A stretch of 64,000 bases of DNA from Escherichia phage ES17. Below, in pieces: positions 3,927-56,772 of the stretch; within the stretch, counting starts at the first letter, position 1, and every line of letters begins with the position of its first letter. Location of the stretch: the sequence record NC_070984.1; one strand, given 5' to 3'. The notes beneath the pieces were generated by a model, which saw only the letters and a list, made by a program, of their open reading frames with translations, did not search any database and had not been told where the DNA came from. Both the position numbers and the translations under genes were made by a program.

Positions 3927-6884
3927 ATGGCTCTTTACCCAATAAAATCTTTGGGTGCGGTTGGTGTTATTGCCGACCAATCTCCTACAGATCTGGCTCC
4001 TAATGCATTTACTAATGCAATTAATGCTCGGTTTGTAGAACAGCGTGTGTTTAAGACGGGGGGCTCTGCCCCTCTTTCTTACGTTGAAAGTGATAAAGAA
4101 ATAAGACCATTATCATTCACTTCAATGCCTTTTGACTACTTCAGTGCTAACAATAGTTTCTTACTGGTAGGTACAGATAAGAGTATTTTTAGATTAAATA
4201 ATGAATCTATGGTTGATGTTAGTCGAAGAGTGGCTACAGTCACCAAAAAAGCAGTATCTTATGTCAAGATAAACCCCGTACTAACAGAGATCGTCCCTAA
4301 AGAAACATCTGTTATTATGAATCTTAATGAAAGCAAGGTTCTCGAGGTATCTCTTCTTCCAGAAGGTGTTGTTACTCCATCCCTTGTGTGGGAGGTTAGT
4401 AATCCCTCCTATGGTTCAATATTAGTTGACCCTGATGATAGTAAGAAAGCTACATTGAGTGTCTTATCTAATGAGGGTAGCTTTACTGTCACTGTCTCTA
4501 ATGAAGATGAATCTGTAACTACCAGTATCTCCGTAAAGGTTGTTGATTCTGATTCTGGTATCTTCCTTAACCGGGACTCTGTTCAACTTCGTAAAGGTGG
4601 AACAACCACACTTACAGCAACAACCAGCAAGACCCCACTAACGTGGACTTCTTCTAACCCGTCCATTATATCTGTGGCGCCTAATGGTGACACTACTACA
4701 GCAATATTAACCGCTCAAGGAGTAGGTAATGCACTGATAACAGTAAGCAATGGGTCTAAAACCTCGGAATGCTCTGTTAGTGTTATCAATCAGATTGACA
4801 GTATATCTTTAAGTCAAACAGATTTACAAATTAACCGTGGGACGTCATATGTCTTATACTCTAGTTTAATTCCATCAAATGCTGCAAATCAGAGAATAAC
4901 TTGGACTTCCTCTAACCCAAATATCGCCACTGTTTCGGGAACAGGTCTTCAAGGAACTGTCTCTGGGTTAACTGCTGGGTTTACAGTTATAACAGCAACT
5001 ACGGAAGAAGGTGAAAGGACCGCCACCTGTAACGTCAGGGTTGAGTTATCAAGTAGGGCCCTTTTTTCTGCTGCATCAGCTCCTTCTGAAGAACCTAGTT
5101 CTACGGATTCAGATATTGACACCTCATCTATGTCAGAGGGCAATGCTTTTTATGACTATTCTATGGTTGATGGTGTTGAAGCCTATTCTATAAATGAAGT
5201 CATGTCTAGGTCAACTCAGCTTGAATCCTTAACTCTTGACATTGTGGATACTGAAATTGATGTTGGAGATGAGTTAGTAATAACTGCAACGGCATTCCCT
5301 GAAGGGGAGTACCTTTATAATTGGGTGGTAGATCAGCCGGGGTATATATCCTCTACTTCCACTACCGACTCTTCCTTTACCTTAACTGCTATTAAGACTG
5401 GCAAAGTGAAGATAACCTGCACTGCTAGTCAAGTAGCTCGTAGAGACTATGAAGCATTTGAGAAGTATCCTTGGTATAATACGATTATCTCTAACTGCGC
5501 AGTATTCACTACTCACTACGAAACCCCTCAAGTAAAAGAGTTTGCCTCTGAGTATTTCACAGATCTTCCGGGGTGGGGTGAGCAGACAATAGTAGATGCT
5601 AATGGGAACCCTTCTGTTGTAAAATATAACTGGAAGTGCGAAAGGATTCGTGCATTTAATAATCGTCTATTTGCTCTTAATATGCGAGAGTCTAATGCAT
5701 CAGGAGTTACTACTCACTACCCTCTTCGACTTCGCTGGTCTAACTATGCTAATGAGAATAAGGCACCTACTTTATGGGATGATTTTGCTTATGATAGATA
5801 TGTGACTTCAGATTTAGCAGCAAATGTTGTAGGTCAAACTGAGGCTCTAGAAAATGGATATGCCGGATACATAGATTTAGCTGACTCAAACGGTAGCTTA
5901 GTCGAAATTCTTCCTCTTAAGGATTATCTATTTATCTATACGGAGTTTGAGACTTACATTGGATCCCCAACTAACAACACATATCAACCTCTAATGTTCA
6001 AGAAGCTCTTCAACGACTCTGGAATCTTAGCACCTGAGTGTGTAGTTGAAGTTGAGAGCGGACATTTCGTGGTCACTCAGAATGATGTTATTCTACACAA
6101 TGGTGCAACCAAGAAGTCTATTGCATCTAACAGGGTCAAGAATATGCTTATCAACGAAGTGTGTTTAGTAAACCCTTTGGCTACTAAAGTTCATCTTCAC
6201 CAAGACAAGAAGGAAGTGTGGATTCTTTATGTAGGACCCGGAGAACCTGCTGGGAGCTTTGCTTGTACGAAAGCCGCTGTATGGAACTATGAGTTTGATA
6301 CGTGGTCTTTCCGTACAATCCCATTCTCTCATTGTATTGGTTTAGTCGATCCTCCTACTTTAGAGAAAGGTCCTACTTGGGTTGATTTCCAAGAGTACAC
6401 TTGGGATGACCCTTCAATCAGTGAACTTGTGTGGAGAAAGGATTCTACTAACTTCCGTCAGAGAGTTACTGTAGTAGGTTCTTGGATGAAAGGTTTTTAC
6501 CAAGTGGACATAGGTCCTTATGACTACTCTTATGATAGGCTGAATGATATTGTTGTCAAAAAGCCCCTAGAGATGAGACTGGAAAGAACTGGTATAGATT
6601 TTGACAACGTAACTAATGAATGGAATCAAAAGCACATAAACCGATTCCGTCCACAAGTAACCGGGTCAGGTACGTACATATTCCAAGCTGGTGGTAGTCA
6701 GTATTCGGATCAAGAGGATAGGCATATTCATAGTGAAAAGTCTTATACAATTGGTGTGGACAGACATGTAGGTGTCCGACTGAACCATCCGTATCTATTC
6801 TATAATGTTATAGATAATGATGTTAACAGTAATGCAGCAATCAATGGTCTAACTATTGAGTTTGCTGTTGGCGGGCGAAGATAA
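3927..6884 (+). CDS. Large structural protein with bacterial Ig-like (Big_2-type) repeats
   Basis: 985 aa; three repeats of the LTWTSSNPSIISV...TAxGxG..ITV type between aa 130-360. Confidence 0.55.
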   Translation: MALYPIKSLGAVGVIADQSPTDLAPNAFTNAINARFVEQRVFKTGGSAPLSYVESDKEIRPLSFTSMPFDYFSANNSFLLVGTDKSIFRLNNESMVDVSRRVATVTKKAVSYVKINPVLTEIVPKETSVIMNLNESKVLEVSLLPEGVVTPSLVWEVSNPSYGSILVDPDDSKKATLSVLSNEGSFTVTVSNEDESVTTSISVKVVDSDSGIFLNRDSVQLRKGGTTTLTATTSKTPLTWTSSNPSIISVAPNGDTTTAILTAQGVGNALITVSNGSKTSECSVSVINQIDSISLSQTDLQINRGTSYVLYSSLIPSNAANQRITWTSSNPNIATVSGTGLQGTVSGLTAGFTVITATTEEGERTATCNVRVELSSRALFSAASAPSEEPSSTDSDIDTSSMSEGNAFYDYSMVDGVEAYSINEVMSRSTQLESLTLDIVDTEIDVGDELVITATAFPEGEYLYNWVVDQPGYISSTSTTDSSFTLTAIKTGKVKITCTASQVARRDYEAFEKYPWYNTIISNCAVFTTHYETPQVKEFASEYFTDLPGWGEQTIVDANGNPSVVKYNWKCERIRAFNNRLFALNMRESNASGVTTHYPLRLRWSNYANENKAPTLWDDFAYDRYVTSDLAANVVGQTEALENGYAGYIDLADSNGSLVEILPLKDYLFIYTEFETYIGSPTNNTYQPLMFKKLFNDSGILAPECVVEVESGHFVVTQNDVILHNGATKKSIASNRVKNMLINEVCLVNPLATKVHLHQDKKEVWILYVGPGEPAGSFACTKAAVWNYEFDTWSFRTIPFSHCIGLVDPPTLEKGPTWVDFQEYTWDDPSISELVWRKDSTNFRQRVTVVGSWMKGFYQVDIGPYDYSYDRLNDIVVKKPLEMRLERTGIDFDNVTNEWNQKHINRFRPQVTGSGTYIFQAGGSQYSDQEDRHIHSEKSYTIGVDRHVGVRLNHPYLFYNVIDNDVNSNAAINGLTIEFAVGGRR

Positions 6885-6934: not shown

Positions 6935-7903
6935 ATGGGTGCTGGTGGCTTTCGTAAGAATACCGGAAGAAACAACACAACACAACCTTATAGTGTGGGC
7001 TTTCTAAACACCTCTGAGAGTGTAGAAACCAATAACGTTGCAATATATGATGAACTCCAGAACATTAGCACTGCAACCAATCAAATGTTCCAAGCTATAG
7101 ATGAAATCCACGAGGAGATTGATGTTCGTATTAAAGCTCTTCATGCTATGAATTTGCAATTCGATGAATTAGAGAACCGTGTTACAACAGAGATTGAGAC
7201 TGCCATTGCAGATATCATAACACAAATGGGTAATCTATCCACTGATGATATTTGGGATAACTCTGTTCAGCCTCCTGTTAAGTTAGATTCAACTATGTCT
7301 GGTATTAAGACTTCTATAGAAGGCAATACAGCATCTATTCAAACTGTCGAAGGCATTGTCAATGATCAAGGACAAGAGATTGCCCTTATTCAGTCTGATT
7401 TAACTAACGGGACAGGTAGTGCTTCTCAATATATGAAACTCACTGAATATGAAGCTACTTGGGGAGTAAATTCCACAGTAAATGGAAAGACAGCAGGAGT
7501 AAAACTGACAAATAATGGTTCTGTAAGCCAATTCCAAGTCACAGCTGATAAGTTTGTGGTATCTGATGGCACATCAGGAAGTACTCCCTTCAAGGTTGAG
7601 AATGGAAGGGCTGTTATGGAGTTTGCTGATATTACTAATGTCAATATTACAACAGCTCAAATAGCAACAGCTAGGATTGAATGGGCACAGATTGATAATG
7701 TTAGTATAACAAATGCACAAATCACAAGTCTCTCCGCTGATAAGATAACGGCTGGGTCTATGTCAGGGACTAATTGGCGTCTTACAGTTGGCGGTGACTT
7801 TGTTTTAGGTGGAACAGGTGGTGCACAATTATGGATGAATGGAAACAGAATAGATTTCTACGACGGAAGTGGTGCTCTAAGAATTAGAATAGGGAGTTGG
7901 TAA
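6935..7903 (+). CDS. Virion structural protein (tail-associated?)
   Basis: 322 aa ORF with RBS AAGGAGGG; no recognisable catalytic motif. Confidence 0.4.
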   Translation: MGAGGFRKNTGRNNTTQPYSVGFLNTSESVETNNVAIYDELQNISTATNQMFQAIDEIHEEIDVRIKALHAMNLQFDELENRVTTEIETAIADIITQMGNLSTDDIWDNSVQPPVKLDSTMSGIKTSIEGNTASIQTVEGIVNDQGQEIALIQSDLTNGTGSASQYMKLTEYEATWGVNSTVNGKTAGVKLTNNGSVSQFQVTADKFVVSDGTSGSTPFKVENGRAVMEFADITNVNITTAQIATARIEWAQIDNVSITNAQITSLSADKITAGSMSGTNWRLTVGGDFVLGGTGGAQLWMNGNRIDFYDGSGALRIRIGSW

Positions 7904-7904
7904 T

Positions 7905-8936
7905 ATGGCATATGGAATATGGACACAACCAGTAGGGCCGGGGCCAGCAACCCCCGCTCCCTTGTTTATTGATAGCGGAAGTACTTTCCCTCAGTTCAAG
8001 AATAGTATAAGAGGGAGCTTTAACTTTAATGGAGCTGGGAGATCTTTCCCTATTAGTGGATGGGATGGCAGTGGTCAGATAGTTATTGTTCCTACCGGTT
8101 CTTTATGCTGGCAATGGGAAGTCCCTCCTAACCTAGTTCCTGATGTTTATTGTGTGAATAATATCTATGTAGAAAACAACTCCTCTTTTAGAGTTACTCT
8201 GAATCAGAACCCCGGTAGTAATCCACTATTCGATTGTGGGTTCAACGTATATCAAATATGGCCTAGAGCGGATAGGAATTATGGAATTACCTTTTCTAAT
8301 ACAGCAGACTACTTCTCAATATCTGACAGTGGGGTCGTCGGTCAATGTATTTGGGCTTGGCAGGGGACCATAAACAATGCCCTTCAGATACCAAATATCG
8401 GTGGGTTCAATATGACCAATGCTGTTGTGTTTGCTAATTGGTCTGATGGAGGGGTAGGACTATCTTATACCTCTGATGACAGGGTTATTCGCGTCTATCA
8501 GAACAGACCCTATGTCAACGGAAACACTAATGAAGGAGGGTCTGTCTTTGCGAGGGTTGCCGTATTCTGTAACGGAGCTGGTGTTCCTGAGCATAATGGA
8601 GGTTTGAATATTTACTCTCCGGGTACCACACAATGTGTCTTCTCTACTAACAGAACACCTTTCACTGTGGATACTTTTATAGGATCAGGAGGTGGTAACA
8701 CGGGAATGTCATACCCCATGATACCTCTTACCTCTGGGATAGGTGCAATAAAAGGCCGAGGCAGTGGATGGAGATATCAGCAAATGAGATCTCACACAAT
8801 GAGTGGTTCTACGATAGGAACTGGCTATGGAAGGTATTTGTTTCAGTGGGATCAAAATTACGACCTAGGAGCTGATACTGTAGTTAATTTATCAGTCCCT
8901 GTAATAAATGCAGCTAAGGTTTTTGCTGGACTATAA
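7905..8936 (+). CDS. Virion structural protein
   Basis: 343 aa; start overlaps previous stop (TAATATG); Gly/Asn-rich. Confidence 0.4.
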   Translation: MAYGIWTQPVGPGPATPAPLFIDSGSTFPQFKNSIRGSFNFNGAGRSFPISGWDGSGQIVIVPTGSLCWQWEVPPNLVPDVYCVNNIYVENNSSFRVTLNQNPGSNPLFDCGFNVYQIWPRADRNYGITFSNTADYFSISDSGVVGQCIWAWQGTINNALQIPNIGGFNMTNAVVFANWSDGGVGLSYTSDDRVIRVYQNRPYVNGNTNEGGSVFARVAVFCNGAGVPEHNGGLNIYSPGTTQCVFSTNRTPFTVDTFIGSGGGNTGMSYPMIPLTSGIGAIKGRGSGWRYQQMRSHTMSGSTIGTGYGRYLFQWDQNYDLGADTVVNLSVPVINAAKVFAGL

Positions 8937-13463: not shown

Positions 13464-13478
13464 TCTATAATGTATATA
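13464..13478 (+). promoter_or_regulatory. Candidate phage-sigma promoter motif TAATGTATA
   Basis: CTATAATGTATATAGG 40 nt upstream of ATG 13515; same 9-mer recurs at 23195-23203 (minus) and 23387-23395 (plus). Confidence 0.5.
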
Positions 13479-20813: not shown

Positions 20814-22097
<1,284 letters not shown>

Positions 22098-22340
22098 AAT
22101 GCATCTCTTTATAAATAGTTTCCGTGTTCTTCTTCCAGTTAGATAAACCGGTAAGAACCCTCTGAGCAACTTCATCAGCTGCCCTACTTCTTTCAATCTC
22201 TAACTCTTGCTGGTGCTTCTCTTTGTCCAGATTACTGCTGTCTGTTTGGTACTCGTTAAACTTCATACCACCAAAGAATACAAGAGCTGAGAAAATGATA
22301 AACCCTATATTATCACTTAATGTACTTTGCATACTGTCTC

Positions 22341-23194: not shown

Positions 23195-23203
23195 TATACA
23201 TTA
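23195..23203 (-). promoter_or_regulatory. TAATGTATA promoter motif upstream of SSB gene
   Basis: Minus-sense ATGTAATGTATATTATAC about 60 nt upstream of ATG 23135. Confidence 0.5.
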
Positions 23204-23386: not shown

Positions 23387-23395
23387 TAATGTATA
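23387..23395 (+). promoter_or_regulatory. Orphan plus-strand TAATGTATA motif with no plus-strand gene downstream
   Basis: GCTATAATGTATATAAG; faces an AT-rich, repeat-containing 300-bp non-coding stretch. Confidence 0.35.
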
Positions 23396-51523: not shown

Positions 51524-51775
51524 TTACATCGGAGTTAAGATGATCTCTGCTTTGGCAAACTTCTCGCCAACTTCAAGAGTGTCAGAAACAGGACGAGGTT
51601 CGCCTGTACCTAAATTAACTGCTCTGCGATATCCACCAGATAGAGGCATCATCAAATAAATGACCTGACTGTCATCATCTTTTAAAGTAAAGATGTCAGC
51701 GGTTGACAGATCTTTAACAAAGAGTTTCTTTTTTTCTTTGTTGTGAACCTTAATATGTATCGTGCTCATTCTCAC
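51524..51775 (-). CDS. Small-protein paralog family member 1
   Basis: 83 aa; family pattern MK...L..L..G.VF...[YW][IL]K...VNL..G. Confidence 0.45.
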   Translation of the reverse strand: MRMSTIHIKVHNKEKKKLFVKDLSTADIFTLKDDDSQVIYLMMPLSGGYRRAVNLGTGEPRPVSDTLEVGEKFAKAEIILTPM

Positions 51776-52017
51776 TCCTGAACCACAGACATACGAATCA
51801 TTTCTACCTGATCATCAAGACCTTTAACAGATAGTACACCTGTGGATAGATTCACTACAGGAACCCAGCCACTGGCTATACGGATGTTACCAGAAGCATT
51901 TTCAACCCTCATATAATACTGAGGAGAGGCACTTCCGTGCTGAACCATGAAGGGGTTTCCGGGAATGATTGTTTCCAATCGAACCGTATTATCCTTTTTC
52001 TTTGGGATGATTTTCAT
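51772..52017 (-). CDS. Small-protein paralog family member 2
   Basis: 81 aa; MKIIPKKKDNTVRLETIIPGNPF...VVNLSTG. Confidence 0.45.
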   Translation of the reverse strand: MKIIPKKKDNTVRLETIIPGNPFMVQHGSASPQYYMRVENASGNIRIASGWVPVVNLSTGVLSVKGLDDQVEMIRMSVVQE

Positions 52018-52265
52018 TATGTATTATCCACCAAAAGTTCTGCCGACACAGGAATAACTCGACAATAAATAGAAGGTGCTGTTACATTGCCATCAGACAG
52101 ACGAAGAGTGATTGATCTGTCAGAGTTGATAGTAACGTTTGGACTTGCAGACACAGACCCTTTGACATACAGGGTTGCATTGTCAGGAAACTTAAACACA
52201 GCTCCGCTGGGAAGTGAGTTGAGGTCAACTGTAGTCACTTCTTCTTTCTTGTGAGTAATCTTCAT
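52017..52265 (-). CDS. Small-protein paralog family member 3
   Basis: Start at internal MKITHKKEEVTTVDLNSLPSGAVF; track N-terminal extension overlaps next gene. Confidence 0.45.
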   Translation of the reverse strand: MKITHKKEEVTTVDLNSLPSGAVFKFPDNATLYVKGSVSASPNVTINSDRSITLRLSDGNVTAPSIYCRVIPVSAELLVDNT

Positions 52266-52266
52266 A

Positions 52267-52497
52267 TTATTTACCCTGAATAATAAGTTTAGATTCGAAC
52301 AGATCAACAGTATTGGACAAAGGGACAGGAAAGAAAATATCTTTAGGGTTCCGAACACACATTGCAGAATGCTCCCCTGTTTTTATCCAGAATTTAGGGA
52401 CTACATCGTCACCAGTAAAACGAAAAACATCTCCATTCTCCAAGTCAGAGAAAGTCTTGGAGGGTGTTTTGCTTTTTGGTACTAGCTCAAAATTCAT
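52267..52497 (-). CDS. Small-protein paralog family member 4
   Basis: 76 aa; FSDLENGDVFRF...KFWIKTGEH. Confidence 0.45.
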   Translation of the reverse strand: MNFELVPKSKTPSKTFSDLENGDVFRFTGDDVVPKFWIKTGEHSAMCVRNPKDIFFPVPLSNTVDLFESKLIIQGK

Positions 52498-52817: not shown

Positions 52818-53299
52818 ACATCCTCCAATTAATTGTTAAAACTATCAGGGGAGAACACTAGCTCTGGGCCACGCTGTAGATATCGGCCTACCTTCCACAG
52901 CTAATCAGCTAATATACTCCCCTAATAGTTTATGAATAGGGGGAGGGGACGAATCCTCCCTTATCCTATTAGTTAATATTGCATGTAAGATCTAACAATC
53001 GGTTGCCTTTGTAGGAATAAGCGTAAAGCCAATCCAGCACTAAACTCCCGCCCCCTTAGTGGGCTGGGTTATTAAAGGGTAACGCCCTTATGGGCTAGTT
53101 ACATGAATGTTAGTTTGATAGGAGATCTGAAGTCCTATCTCAAAGGACTCTCGTAAGAATCCTTCACGATATTACTTATTCATCTCTCGTCGGCTATCTC
53201 TCCAAGCCAACCAAGTGTAGGTTTTCAGTTCTTCAAAGTCTTCTGGAGAGAATAGATACTCTTTGAAGGTATCACCAAACCACTTTAAAAATTCTTTAG

Positions 53300-53560
53300 T
53301 CATGAGTCCTCATACTTTTTGTTAGGAAGGATGAAATCCCAAAGAGCAGCCCATACTGCGAGAGATATAAACAGTACAGCAATGATAGGCCATAGGAAAA
53401 CCATGGCTGCTATCTTTGCAAGGTCTGCTTCACCCCTCCAGTTTCTAAAGCATTCATCACCTTTAACATCTATAACCTTAATAAGTACTCCTGATAACAC
53501 CATACCTATCAGGTAGGTTATTAACATACTAACAAGACTGATCACAAGGCTGATCTCCAC
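53300..53560 (-). CDS. Two-TM small membrane protein
   Basis: 86 aa; ISLVISLVSMLITYLIGMVLSGVLI and LWPIIAVLFISLAVWAALW. Confidence 0.4.
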   Translation of the reverse strand: MEISLVISLVSMLITYLIGMVLSGVLIKVIDVKGDECFRNWRGEADLAKIAAMVFLWPIIAVLFISLAVWAALWDFILPNKKYEDS

Positions 53561-53702
53561 ATGTTTTACAGATCACTGGTGAGTAACTACAGGCAGGATA
53601 TACTGACACCCCATCAAACGTCTCACATCCACAATCAGGACATGTACCGTTGGATTCCATGTCATCATCGTCATCTACTTCACCGCCACCAAAACAACTC
53701 AT
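53529..53702 (-). CDS. Cys-rich zinc-ribbon mini-protein (57 aa), not in ORF track
   Basis: MSCFGGGEVDDDDDMESNGTCPDCGCETFDG...CKTCGDQPCDQSC. Confidence 0.35.
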   Translation of the reverse strand: MSCFGGGEVDDDDDMESNGTCPDCGCETFDGVSVYPACSYSPVICKTCGDQPCDQSC

Positions 53703-53711
53703 ACAGACTCC

Positions 53712-53933
53712 CTAATAAACTAAACCTACAGCCTTTGCATCAGGTTGAGGGACTACCTTTGCGCTAGGGCGATAACCATCCACTGAACCGTTCCAAAGAT
53801 TGACACAGGTGATATATCCATCGTCTATGATGTCTGTTTTAATCCAGAAGTGTTTATCATGACCAAAAATACTTCCGTTTGGCAGCGTGGACAGCTCAAC
53901 GGTTTTAAGGGACTGCTTAGAGTCTAGTTTCAT
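53712..53933 (-). CDS. Small-protein paralog family member 5
   Basis: 73 aa; LSTLPNGSIFGHDKHFWIKTD...CVNLWNG. Confidence 0.45.
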   Translation of the reverse strand: MKLDSKQSLKTVELSTLPNGSIFGHDKHFWIKTDIIDDGYITCVNLWNGSVDGYRPSAKVVPQPDAKAVGLVY

Positions 53934-53940
53934 AATAACC

Positions 53941-54189
53941 TCAATTATCGTAGCATGTATTCCAATACATGTAGTTAACGTACGTTCTCGGTTTGATTCC
54001 GTACATGATGAAGTGAGTCTTCTTAATCCTTTCCTTCAGCGTGTAATAAAGGCCATCACTGAAGTTACCAATCTTTACTTGGAAGCGTAAGGAGCGAGCA
54101 TCCATTCGAAGCATAGAGATTAACTGTACTCTACTACCCCCAGCCATCTCTTCAAGAAGCTTCTTTGTATTCCAATAATGAGCTGCCAT
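53941..54189 (-). CDS. Hypothetical protein
   Basis: 82 aa track ORF. Confidence 0.3.
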   Translation of the reverse strand: MAAHYWNTKKLLEEMAGGSRVQLISMLRMDARSLRFQVKIGNFSDGLYYTLKERIKKTHFIMYGIKPRTYVNYMYWNTCYDN

Positions 54190-54190
54190 A

Positions 54191-54472
54191 TTACCACTCC
54201 TTACCGGTTGTTGTTACAGAGCCACCACACCACTGCGCATCGGATAAGGTTTTAGTCTCCTCATCTACTGCTGCACCATTCAGACATGAGATACCATTGT
54301 AACGCATATCAATTTCACCAGAAGGAACCTTCTCACCTTTATGCCAGCGAGAAACACAAACACCTTCCACTGCTACTGCACACCATCCATCAGGACGGCT
54401 CTGTACGCAGCCTGTAAGGGCCACACAGACAAGGAAGATACAGATTAAGGATATTACACCACCCCAACTCAT
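54191..54472 (-). CDS. Cys-rich lipoprotein (candidate superinfection-exclusion / receptor-blocking protein)
   Basis: Signal peptide with lipobox ALTGC, five further Cys in 70-aa mature part. Confidence 0.5.
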   Translation of the reverse strand: MSWGGVISLICIFLVCVALTGCVQSRPDGWCAVAVEGVCVSRWHKGEKVPSGEIDMRYNGISCLNGAAVDEETKTLSDAQWCGGSVTTTGKEW

Positions 54473-54491
54473 GGCTACCTCCTATTTGATT

Positions 54492-54568
54492 TGGCGCACC
54501 CTACAGGATTCGAACCTGTAACCGACGGATTAGAAATCCGATGTTCTGTCCAATTGAACTAAGGGCGC
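54492..54568 (-). tRNA. tRNA-Arg(UCU): tRNA-Arg (anticodon UCU), CCA encoded
   Basis: Manual cloverleaf: acceptor GCGCCCU/AGGGUGC (one G-U), D stem GUUC/GAAC, anticodon loop UUUCUAA, T arm ACAGG-UUCGAAU-CCUGU, discriminator G + CCA. Confidence 0.85.
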
Positions 54569-54748
54569 GGAATTATTTAGATCATATCTCGCTTGGTGAT
54601 ATGACCACATGTTTTGCACTGCATGATATAGCGTACACCTTTATGTTTCGTACCACCATAATCATCAGTGATCTTTAGTGTATACTTCTCAAGAATTACC
54701 CAATCATGCAGATGGAATAGACGTTTAAACCACTTGAACATAATAACC

Positions 54749-55000
54749 TCAAGCGCAAGCAGGGAGAGTGATGATTTTATACTTGCCTTCAAACTCTCCA
54801 AATAAACCCAAGAATGTAGGACTGTAAGTACCAGTACAAACAAACTCATCAAACAATGCGTTATAACTAGGCTTGATCTTCCAAGCCCATACATAACCCA
54901 TCTTGTCAATTGCAATGTAACGAGTGTTCAGAGGAACAGTCATCATTATACCATCAACTTCGATCACTTTAGTGATTGGTGCAGCTTGGAAGTTTTTCAT
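54749..55000 (-). CDS. Hypothetical protein
   Basis: 83 aa; ATG overlaps stop of upstream mini-gene (ATGA). Confidence 0.35.
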   Translation of the reverse strand: MKNFQAAPITKVIEVDGIMMTVPLNTRYIAIDKMGYVWAWKIKPSYNALFDEFVCTGTYSPTFLGLFGEFEGKYKIITLPACA

Positions 55001-55173
55001 ACTTTACCTTTGATAAAAATGTCATTACCACAGACACAGCATGAACGAACAACAGTAGCGCCACGCTGAACGATACGGACCTCTTCCTTAACCAGATTAA
55101 CACGAGCACCACAGCAAGGAGAGTTGACATAAGAGTAACCAGCTTGTGTATTCTTGATTGTTTGCTTAGACAT
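54997..55173 (-). CDS. Cys-rich mini-protein (58 aa), not in ORF track
   Basis: MSKQTIKNTQAGYSYVNSPCCGARVN...SCCVCGND. Confidence 0.35.
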   Translation of the reverse strand: MSKQTIKNTQAGYSYVNSPCCGARVNLVKEEVRIVQRGATVVRSCCVCGNDIFIKGKV

Positions 55174-55272
55174 TTGAGCTTCCTCTTGTTAGTTTAGGTA
55201 AACCACCCCAATCACTGCTGCACTCATTCATGTGGAATGCAGATGGGAAAAGTAATTAAAGGTGATTTACCT

Positions 55273-55301
55273 AAAACAACAAAGGCCACCCGAAGGCAGC
55301 C
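55273..55301 (-). terminator. Intrinsic terminator (UUCG-type hairpin)
   Basis: Minus-sense GGCUGCC-UUCG-GGUGGCC (G-U pairs) + UUUGUUGUUUU. Confidence 0.6.
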
Positions 55302-55310
55302 TTTTATTTA

Positions 55311-55451
55311 TTAACTGTTATACGTCCAACCACCTTGCTTGTTACGGATGGCTGACATTGCATGAATCCAAAAGCCTTCCAGTTTCAGAGCACCATTAGC
55401 TACTGCATCCATACGTTCAGGGCGGTTCATACGTTTGGTTGATACTTTCAT
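55311..55451 (-). CDS. Small basic protein (46 aa), not in ORF track
   Basis: MKVSTKRMNRPERMDAVANGALKLEGFWIHAMSAIRNKQGGWTYNS. Confidence 0.3.
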   Translation of the reverse strand: MKVSTKRMNRPERMDAVANGALKLEGFWIHAMSAIRNKQGGWTYNS

Positions 55452-55696
55452 ACCTATCTCTCTTTGTTAGTGGAGGCATTATTGCCAGTTGATATAAGGG
55501 ATAGCCCTAGTCAGTAGACTAATCCTGACCGCGTACTCATTGCCGACCTTCTCTGCCTAAGAGTTCAGGTTCTAGAGCTATCTCTTATTCCAACTGGTGA
55601 AGACTCCCTACCCCTAGGAAGTCTCCTGAATCCCAAACTAATACGTACCCCTACATATCAGAAAGTCTTTCGAAAATTAACAGGTTTTAGTCTAGC

Positions 55697-55806
55697 ACCG
55701 GATGTTCGAGCAAGCTCTCCCTAGCGGTGTGGCATATGCCTGAATTAATAAGTTAATGAGGAACACCCTCACATAGCCCTCTGATAAACACAAGGGCTAT
55801 AAGTCG
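55697..55806. repeat. Conserved intergenic element, copy 2
   Basis: See copy 1 at 50716-50833; includes inverted repeat ATAGCCC ... GGGCTAT. Confidence 0.6.
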
Positions 55807-55809
55807 ATG

Positions 55810-56028
55810 TTACTTTTGAGTCAAACACAGATCGGGACGTGGCATAACAGTGGTTGATAGACCGAAGACTTCAACATAACCGCTGCTCAAGTTAGCAGCC
55901 TTACGCAAACCGTCAGAGGTCTTATCTTCTAGCATCAGCCAGAAACGTTTATCGTAAGAGAAAACATCACCGCCCTTAACATCTTCTGCATTTGCATATT
56001 TAGGATAATCAACTACTTTAATTTCCAT
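55810..56028 (-). CDS. Small-protein paralog family member 6
   Basis: 72 aa; AEDVKGGDVFSYDKRFWLMLED...AANLSSG. Confidence 0.45.
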   Translation of the reverse strand: MEIKVVDYPKYANAEDVKGGDVFSYDKRFWLMLEDKTSDGLRKAANLSSGYVEVFGLSTTVMPRPDLCLTQK

Positions 56029-56286
56029 TCACTTACCTTTATTAGTAATTACTGCATCTGGGATAAGGATTACAGGAAGATTTGAATTAAGCTTCATAAC
56101 CTGATTAGTTCTTAAACCAAGCACAACTGTTCCAGAATCTTTCCTGTTCGACTCGGTTACGTGTGGAGTGAATAAACTAACAACCAAATAGTGATCGACG
56201 CATGTAGATTTAACTTGGAATACATCTCCAAGCTTTAAATCACCCACTGTAAGATCTGGGTCTTTCATCTCAAGATCAATCTTCAT
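56029..56286 (-). CDS. Small-protein paralog family member 7
   Basis: 85 aa; VGDLKLGDVFQVKS...VVLGLRTNQV. Confidence 0.4.
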   Translation of the reverse strand: MKIDLEMKDPDLTVGDLKLGDVFQVKSTCVDHYLVVSLFTPHVTESNRKDSGTVVLGLRTNQVMKLNSNLPVILIPDAVITNKGK

Positions 56287-56512
56287 CTTTAGCCTCTATG
56301 TTGGTTATGTGAAGATCACTACGTACTTGGCAGACTTCATCCCGTTTAAAAGGCATGAGCTTTCCAGTTACCACATCAACACAGTTGACATAATTGTCTG
56401 CGTACAATGTGTCGGTTCTGATGTAAAGGGATTCTTTACGCTCAAACAGAACCCCCGGCTTCATGTTATTTAAGCGAAGCATTGTACGATCGGATTTAAT
56501 ATTAACTTTCAT
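56276..56512 (-). CDS. Small-protein paralog family member 8
   Basis: 78 aa; LNNMKPGVLFERKESLYIRTD...CVDVVTG. Confidence 0.45.
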   Translation of the reverse strand: MKVNIKSDRTMLRLNNMKPGVLFERKESLYIRTDTLYADNYVNCVDVVTGKLMPFKRDEVCQVRSDLHITNIEAKDED

Positions 56513-56514
56513 CT

Positions 56515-56772
56515 TTAATCCACCTTATTGGTAAGTCGAGCATTATCAACTACCTGAACAACAGTATCTTTTCTCAACATTGTTATTCTATCCGAAGTGA
56601 GATCTACTACTACTCTTTCGTCAGGCTTCCAACTAGCTGAATAAACGGTTGAGGAATCTAGCTTTACTGTAAGATATATTTTATTTTTAGGTGGAACAGT
56701 TTCAAAAACACTCCCCACCTTCAGGTCTTTCAGTTGCTTGACTACAGGGGCTGTATTAATATCATGCTTCAT
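56515..56772 (-). CDS. Small-protein paralog family member 9
   Basis: Start at internal MKHDINTAPVVKQLKDLKVGSVFETV. Confidence 0.4.
   Translation of the reverse strand: MKHDINTAPVVKQLKDLKVGSVFETVPPKNKIYLTVKLDSSTVYSASWKPDERVVVDLTSDRITMLRKDTVVQVVDNARLTNKVD

Follow-up and report, generated by a model that had tools for sequence, protein, structure and literature searches.

A candidate LptD-directed superinfection-exclusion lipoprotein and its putative receptor-binding partner in the kuravirus-like Escherichia phage ES17

We analysed a stretch of 64,000 nucleotides from Escherichia phage ES17 (NC_070984.1; hereafter the window, to which all positions refer), and within it a small gene on the minus strand (54191..54472) that encodes a 93-residue lipoprotein precursor. 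Judged by its sequence, the product is homologous over its full length to Rtp45, a lipoprotein encoded by phage Rtp, and is a member of the Pfam family PF24052. We consider it probable (roughly 60%) that it is an Rtp45-type superinfection-exclusion lipoprotein directed at LptD, the essential lipopolysaccharide (LPS) translocon, a function that rests on homology. The chances appear to us about even that LptD is also the terminal receptor of the kuravirus itself, reached via the protein gp19 on the tail needle, with the lipoprotein acting as a homotypic exclusion factor. Neither the gene nor its assignment to the lipoproteins and to a Pfam family is new: its orthologue in phage phiEco32, gp106, has carried the annotation 'putative phage lipoprotein' since 2008, and how the family works has been published. 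New are the proposed placement of a kuravirus protein in the LptD-blocking class and the recognition of gp19 as its putative partner.

Homology of the lipoprotein to Rtp45

Complexes of LptDE with the receptor-binding protein (RBP) of phage Oekolampad and with Rtp45 have been solved (bioRxiv 10.1101/2025.07.07.663478). According to this work, Rtp45 attaches to LptD on its periplasmic side and has an experimentally observed Cys30-Cys38 disulphide. Its long hairpin ascends the LptD lumen, and it shifts extracellular loop 4 (EL4) of LptD outward by as much as 20 Å, a shift that RBP binding does not tolerate. Its exclusion phenotype is taken from the citing literature, which describes Rtp45 as a superinfection-exclusion lipoprotein.

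The ES17 lipoprotein matched PF24052 ('Phage lipoprotein family') over profile positions 1-80 of 80 with 124.6 bits (cut-off 27; E 1.5e-36). A phmmer search of all PDB sequences returned 9rps_D, which is Rtp45, at E 7.7e-16, and blastp gave 43% identity to Rtp45 (E 5e-20) and 33% full-length identity to SE_Oeko (E 2e-15). When the family profile was restricted to the mature protein, hhalign still assigned a probability of 99.9% to the match with Rtp45. Scans of NCBIfam and PADLOC yielded no match for the lipoprotein, and in PHROGs it matched just one unnamed family. In alignments of 13 and 94 family members, Cys31/Cys39, Gly52 and Gly60 were invariant, and Gly21, Cys22, Asp55, Arg57 and the C-terminal Glu-Trp (E92-W93) nearly so. 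Cys31 and Cys39 correspond to the disulphide pair of Rtp45, and both the G52/D55/R57/G60 motif and the C-terminal KEW motif are kept. Identity to Rtp45 amounts to 23 of 40 residues in the mature core (residues 22-61) and to 15 of 25 in residues 37-61, the segment that, from the alignment, would form the lumen-inserting hairpin.

The precursor, MSWGGVISLICIFLVCVALTGC/VQS..., starts at an ATG codon (the gene coordinates include the stop codon) and has a hydrophobic signal sequence, an LTGC lipobox and Val at position +2. The signal peptide comprises residues 1-21 (54410-54472, minus strand) and the 72-residue mature protein residues 22-93 (54194-54409, minus). The lipobox, already recognised in the initial annotation, spans residues 19-22 (54407..54418, minus). 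The same annotation had counted five additional cysteines, whereas there are six besides the lipid-bearing Cys22, hence seven in total (Cys11, 16, 22, 31, 39, 63 and 82), two of them in the signal peptide and four in the mature protein besides Cys22. Cys22 is predicted to form the acylated N-terminus of the mature protein. Under the established Lol-dependent sorting rule of E. coli, Val at +2, a residue other than Asp, predicts sorting to the outer membrane. No other open reading frame (ORF) of the window passed a strict filter for a lipobox plus a hydrophobic stretch. Compared with phiEco32 gp106, the gene showed eight synonymous changes and one non-synonymous change, a ratio of non-synonymous to synonymous substitution rates (dN/dS) of 0.034. 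The gene is genuine, not a chance ORF, and is under purifying selection.

An AlphaFold2 (AF2) model of the lipoprotein reached a predicted local distance difference test score (pLDDT) of 85, and its top PDB match in Foldseek was again 9rps_D (E 1e-3, probability 1.00, template modelling score (TM) 0.77 normalised to the target and 0.46 normalised to the query). This likeness of predicted fold lends moderate support to the homology, and only moderate because models of the PF24052 family have been reported to be unreliable. A kuravirus-specific insert of 23 residues (residues 62-84) bears an extra cysteine pair, Cys63 and Cys82. A second disulphide between them is likely, since the model places the two residues opposite each other in a long beta-hairpin.

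The initial annotation had likened this early-region lipoprotein, in size and features, to the outer-membrane lipoproteins with which phages block their own receptor, and had named Llp of phage T5 as an example. Homology to Rtp45 argues for a receptor-blocking function, whereas blastp, hhalign and the structure search all speak against Llp as a relative. That the protein belongs to the family of T5 Llp or of T1/phi80 Cor and inactivates FhuA is in our view extremely improbable. Such a protein would be alike in size, lipobox, cysteines and early expression, and one GenBank homologue is named 'Cor superinfection exclusion protein', but blastp found no match between the lipoprotein and T5 Llp or T1 Cor at E<=100. 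The family hidden Markov model (HMM) touched T1 Cor and T5 Llp only weakly (16 bits, E 0.0014, and 9.8 bits, E 0.13, respectively), and the mature-only profile gave probabilities of 0.1% for T5 Llp and 0.4% for T1 Cor. The sole blastp match of T1 Cor to the family was a 20-residue stretch of signal peptide aligned with Rtp45. No Llp chain was among the 50 best structural matches of the lipoprotein model, and all matches below the first rank had E>0.2. Finally, tblastn of the window with T5 pb5 gave no match at E<=1, and with T1 gp31/gp32 only a spurious one at 0.14. Membership of T5 Llp was rejected on blastp, the family HMM, mature-only hhalign, the structure search and the lack of a pb5 homologue; membership of the T1/phi80/N15 Cor family was rejected since similarity does not extend past the signal peptide and homologues of the gp31/gp32 cassette are absent. 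T5 Llp is itself named 'Cor' in NC_005859.

The DUF6453 protein gp19, the tail needle and their co-occurrence with the lipoprotein

Relatives of the lipoprotein were detected by tblastn in 385 of 50,697 phage records. About 100 of these are kuravirus-like (60-99% identity); the remainder, at 31-61%, are small siphoviruses of the Drexlerviridae (including Klebsiella Webervirus) and Dhillonvirus. In most of the siphoviruses the lipoprotein gene lies directly upstream of a gene for a protein of ~310-320 residues, beside the gene for the J-like central tail fibre. Among the relatives are those of AugustePiccard (Bas01) and Oekolampad (Bas18), both of which use LptD as terminal receptor. Database names of the homologues are inconsistent: those of the lipoprotein include 'transcriptional regulator' (Ptacy1479), 'PDDEXK-like family protein' (F20, Domnhall) and 'Cor superinfection exclusion protein' (vB_Ec-G8), and those of DUF6453 proteins 'membrane protein' or 'exonuclease' (EcK-vB).

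As the siphovirus lipoprotein travels with its RBP, the window was searched with the RBPs Rtp44 and RBP_Oeko. Both matched the same ORF (7905..8936, plus strand; 343 residues) nearly end to end, with E 5e-10 and 1.6e-9, respectively. This ORF is the orthologue of gp19 of phage SU10 and matched DUF6453 (PF20051), the family of Rtp44 and RBP_Oeko, with 87.1 bits (cut-off 25; E 1.8e-24). It also matched PDB entry 9rpt_C, RBP_Oeko in its complex with open LptDE, with E 1e-9 when searched alone and at 9.5e-20 with a profile built from kuravirus-type sequences only. The AF2 model of gp19 (pLDDT 87, predicted template modelling score 0.88) had 9rpt_C as its sole significant PDB match (Foldseek E 5e-13, TM 0.80). 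In SU10, gp19 is annotated as 'membrane protein' and is uncharacterised. Its homology to the LptD-binding RBPs Rtp44 and RBP_Oeko suggests gp19 as the partner of the lipoprotein.

Directly before gp19 lies the gene for the 322-residue tail needle (6935..7903, plus strand), the orthologue of SU10 gp18, which carries a Phage_Tail_Tip domain (E 3.9e-23). In the J-like fibres of T1, Rtp, AHS24, Bas01 and ISF002, it is the final ~250 residues with which the needle aligned (E 6e-8 to 3e-5). Separate RBPs of siphoviruses are thought to be attached non-covalently to the J-like protein (PMC8594841). By analogy, the J-like part of the needle would be the dock for the DUF6453 protein, and gp19 presumably sits on the needle of the virion. 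By gene content, the kuravirus thus unites a tip of the J type with a DUF6453 protein and a lipoprotein of the Rtp45 type, the trio that specifies LptD in small siphoviruses.

The association of lipoprotein and DUF6453 genes was evaluated in 35 IMG/VR loci bearing the lipoprotein. A DUF6453 gene was adjacent in 28 of them, immediately downstream on the same strand in 26 and on the other strand in two. It was ~9 kb off in three loci (Webervirus) and ~46 kb off in two (kuraviruses), and none was found within the flank in the last two. In the window the two genes likewise occupy one genome without being adjacent. This unlinked arrangement has a precedent in Webervirus, where RBP and blocker are uncoupled too: in the Klebsiella phage FZ10 the lipoprotein gene (4495-4722) stands between VRR-NUC and Dam methylase genes, among replication genes, and the DUF6453 RBP (NC_049840, 28942-29841) is encoded ~9-10 kb away. 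Outside the kuraviruses, it is also in Webervirus that both kuravirus proteins have their nearest relatives.

A distant SU10-like phage of ~100 kb, at ~45% identity, has kept the layout of fibre, nozzle, needle, DUF6453 and transglycosylase genes and carries the lipoprotein gene at the start of its early arm. With an SU10_portal Pfam match and at least 10 tRNA genes, this phage (ENA contig NODE_71_length_100570) appears to be a kuravirus relative with a larger genome. Salmonella phage 7-11, a distant relative of phiEco32, has neither the needle/DUF6453 pair nor a homologue of the lipoprotein, and the FhuA phage T1 has neither a lipoprotein homologue nor a DUF6453 gene. In a large receptor screen, four unrelated RBP families at this locus were reported to be each specific for FhuA, BtuB, LptD or YncD, with DUF6453 being the LptD family. 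The likely target of the ES17 lipoprotein is LptD, not FhuA.

Proposed mechanism and competing explanations

In the model that we infer for the localisation and timing of the lipoprotein, its binding to LptD and the exclusion phenotype, as well as for the position of gp19 on the needle and its use of LptD, the precursor would be transcribed with the early leftward genes, exported and acylated at Cys22. The lipoprotein would then be sorted to the inner leaflet of the outer membrane, where its disulphide-stapled beta-hairpin core would bind the periplasmic side or the lumen of LptDE. Binding would displace extracellular loops of LptD (EL4 in the Rtp45 structure), such that RBPs of the DUF6453 type could no longer dock, both the phage's own gp19 on the needle and those of LptD-dependent small siphoviruses. 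As an outcome, superinfecting phages would be excluded from the infected cell, and progeny would be spared wasteful adsorption to the debris left after lysis. On the same joint reading, for which we see about as much in favour as against, kuraviruses would hold the full siphovirus LptD module of J-type tip, DUF6453 RBP and Rtp45-type blocker in a split form, with the blocker expressed early and the RBP late.

Several observations weigh against this model, and some of them bear on particular alternatives. The signal peptide has an n-region (MSWGG...) without Lys or Arg in every kuravirus homologue, whereas the siphovirus homologues have the usual Lys; efficiency or route of export of the kuravirus lipoprotein may therefore differ. 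The authors of the Rtp45 structure caution that predicted models of these proteins are unreliable (bioRxiv 10.1101/2025.07.07.663478). The structural paper on SU10 assigns gp16 as short fibre, gp17 as nozzle, gp18 as tail needle and gp20-24 as ejection proteins, and mentions gp19 neither in its text on the virion nor in the supplement. Identity of gp19 is 17-24% to the verified LptD binders and 17-28% to the siphovirus family members. It thus falls below the >30% identity at which the LptD-specific DUF6453 family has been defined (bioRxiv 10.64898/2026.04.02.716166) and is a distant member. Since the binding loops of the DUF6453 family are variable as well, the specificity of gp19 may differ from that of the LptD binders and cannot simply be transferred. 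Two tblastn tables, compared informally, revealed no obvious co-variation of lipoprotein and gp19 alleles among kuraviruses; in related isolates, for example, the lipoprotein was 98% identical to that of the window (1-6bf) and gp19 70% (1-6af). Kuraviruses are, moreover, described as dependent on O-antigen, which is lost in resistant mutants, and as having short fibres believed to touch LPS (PMC11990801).

This O-antigen dependence and the predicted binding of the short fibres to LPS are what one would expect if exclusion were purely heterotypic, that is, if the lipoprotein blocked LptD against competing siphoviruses while the kuravirus itself entered via glycans and gp19 had another role or target. 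The missing report of gp19 in the SU10 virion, its identity of ~22% to LptD binders and the lack of obvious allelic co-variation would fit as well. We nevertheless hold this explanation to be unlikely, as the needle-DUF6453 pair and the lipoprotein have been kept together in the relative at ~45% identity and are jointly missing in phage 7-11, and as the lipoprotein is nearly always accompanied by a DUF6453 gene across the 35 loci, an association that fits a cognate pair. LptD as a receptor would escape transposon screens because lptD is essential. In the large receptor screen, in which essential lptD cannot be scored, all O16-dependent phages were left unassigned.

A change of target within the same family, by which lipoprotein and gp19 would have diverged towards another outer-membrane protein or another state of the Lpt machinery, seems to us quite unlikely. 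The kuravirus-specific 23-residue insert with its predicted disulphide, which counts among the points against LptD as target, could be read in this sense, as could the low identity of gp19 to the verified binders and the finding that the nearest non-kuravirus relatives occur in Klebsiella Webervirus phages. However, the putative lumen-entering hairpin segment is the best conserved part of the lipoprotein, at 60% identity to Rtp45; the verified LptD RBPs share only 33-39% identity among themselves and have kept their specificity for LptD; and the host is E. coli, as it is for Rtp and Oekolampad.

It is decidedly improbable, finally, that the lipoprotein is primarily an effector of host takeover which inhibits or modifies the export of LPS or O-antigen via LptDE, with exclusion as a by-product. 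The Rtp45 hairpin does protrude through the LptD lumen, the early genes around it are believed to serve host takeover, and the phage depends on O-antigen. Yet no effect of Rtp45 on LPS export has been reported, cells co-overexpressing Rtp45 and LptDE were viable enough for purification of the complex, and the tight genomic coupling to an RBP family points to masking of a receptor.

If LptD-directed exclusion with LptD as the kuravirus receptor is correct, a whole subfamily of podoviruses would enter through a protein that is both essential and highly conserved, receptor modules would move between siphoviruses and podoviruses, and the genes for RBP and blocker could become uncoupled in the genome. 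Cells infected by a kuravirus, or expressing the lipoprotein gene, would be expected to resist LptD-dependent siphoviruses, which bears on the design of phage cocktails; kuraviruses are in therapeutic use. They are common E. coli phages that plate on a broad range of hosts and markedly resist restriction-modification systems (PMC11990801). Our search of the literature found no link between LptD and Kuravirus or Gordonclarkvirinae; in the BASEL-2 paper LptD comes up for Dhillonvirus only, and a kuravirus review mentions neither a receptor nor a lipoprotein.

Early locus and comparison with known systems

Region 53000-56000 of the window had matches in 109 phage records; the match to phiEco32 covered 96% of the region at 94% identity. 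By sequence the window is that of a phiEco32-like kuravirus (Gordonclarkvirinae). The lipoprotein gene begins 19 nt past the gene for tRNA-Arg (anticodon TCT; 54492..54568, minus strand) on the transcribed strand, and a Shine-Dalgarno sequence, AGGAGG (54478..54483, minus), lies within this spacer, 5 nt before the ATG. ARAGORN called this tRNA as the only one of the window. That a lipoprotein gene adjoins tRNA-Arg, as first annotated, was confirmed by the ORF, the tRNA call, the PF24052 match and the purifying selection.

The leftward cluster of small genes of unknown function belongs to the early class in phiEco32 (PMC8948821), and from its position in this cluster the lipoprotein gene would be early, too. 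A sigma-70 scan returned fewer sites than shuffled sequences. Neither sigma-70-like nor terminator-like sites lie between the lipoprotein gene and the tRNA or upstream ORF, and no promoter of the gp36 type was found on the correct strand within 2 kb of the lipoprotein gene, nor directly upstream. Owing to the lack of such sites, co-transcription of the lipoprotein gene and tRNA-Arg on an early leftward transcript is plausible. A functional link between the two was rejected. The three Arg codons of the lipoprotein gene are CGT, CGC and CGT, with no AGA, and the adjacency is absent in the distant SU10-like relative; it therefore looks incidental.

On the transcribed strand, the strongest terminator-like hairpin of the region (55281-55304, minus strand) is found ~0.7 kb upstream of the tRNA; its GC-rich stem of 10 bp runs into a T-rich tail. 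This hairpin may mark the boundary of an early transcriptional unit that comprises the lipoprotein gene, the tRNA and three small ORFs. The promoter element of the phiEco32 gp36 holoenzyme, TAATGTATA, occurs in exact copies at 13468-13476 (plus), 23195-23203 (minus) and 23387-23395 (plus). Matches to TAATGTATA with at most one mismatch numbered 12 in the window against a mean of 22 in shuffles; because such matches are fewer than in shuffles, the three exact copies are probably real middle or late promoters.

Two small Cys-rich ORFs flank the lipoprotein region on the minus strand, at 53529-53702 and 54997-55173. One encodes 57 residues, among them 10 Cys and an acidic run (DDDDD), the other 58 residues with a zinc-ribbon-like CC...CCVC pattern, and neither had a match in Pfam. 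Eight further small early ORFs of 72-85 residues on the minus strand between 51772 and 56757 look like paralogues (51772-52017, ~52020-52268, 52267-52497, 53712-53933, 55810-56028, 56029-56286, 56276-56512 and ~56518-56757). They share the pattern MKI..K....v.L.dL..G.vF.....(F/Y)(W/Y)(I/L)k ... v.L..G.v, in which Gly and Phe are invariant, and are 18-24% identical to the first of them. A Pfam scan of three of the eight gave no match.

The surroundings of the lipoprotein gene also bear on a role in lysis. To the notion that the product is an o-spanin or another lysis lipoprotein, which its small size and cysteines might suggest, we give practically no credence. The gene lies in the early cluster, with small early ORFs and a tRNA gene as neighbours and no i-spanin gene adjacent, the product is homologous to Rtp45, and a separate, overlapping candidate spanin pair is encoded elsewhere in the window (21837-22332); the role was rejected on these grounds. 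Phage phiEco32 has been catalogued with a two-component spanin (PMC6139136). In the window, the candidate i-spanin (21982-22332, minus strand) has 116 residues and an N-terminal transmembrane segment; the candidate o-spanin (21837-22097, minus; 86 residues, no Pfam match) overlaps it in another frame. The pair is located directly upstream of a sigma-factor-like ORF (21193-21837).

Among known proteins, the ES17 lipoprotein is closest to Rtp45 (9RPS chain D), SE_Oeko (Oekolampad bas18_0026) and AugustePiccard bas01_0029, of which it is by sequence a full-length homologue; all belong to PF24052 and to phages of E. coli. Common to the group are the lipobox, the conserved disulphide pair, the central segment, the C-terminal KEW motif and a genome that also encodes a DUF6453 RBP and a tip of the J type. 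The kuravirus protein differs in its length of 93 residues versus 73-77, owing to the 23-residue insert, in the second cysteine pair Cys63/Cys82 and in the signal peptide devoid of basic residues. Its gene is placed in the early region of a podovirus, ~46 kb from the RBP gene in the late region, whereas in most siphoviruses the gene stands directly upstream of the RBP gene.

Compared with T5 Llp, the proposed activity is alike in that a small early outer-membrane lipoprotein would act on the periplasmic face of a receptor and stop RBP binding outside. The two have no detectable relation in sequence or fold, and they differ in target, proposed to be LptD here and being FhuA for Llp, as well as in the position of the ES17 gene, which is not adjacent to the RBP gene. 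The published mechanism of the Rtp45 type is, furthermore, a physical displacement of loops and not long-range allostery. With Cor of T1, phi80, N15 and HK022 the ES17 protein would share the functional class, a superinfection-exclusion lipoprotein belonging to an RBP module; past the signal peptide, however, the two are unrelated, the partners T1 gp31/gp32 are absent from the window, and Cor pairs with FhuA-specific phages.

The siphovirus LptD module of Drexlerviridae, Dhillonvirus and Queuovirinae has homologues of all three of its parts in the kuravirus genome. In the kuravirus, the J-like part is a 322-residue podovirus needle, the parts of the module are distributed over the late and the early region, and the use of LptD as receptor is putative. 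The use of LptD by a podovirus has a precedent in Pseudomonas phage DEV.

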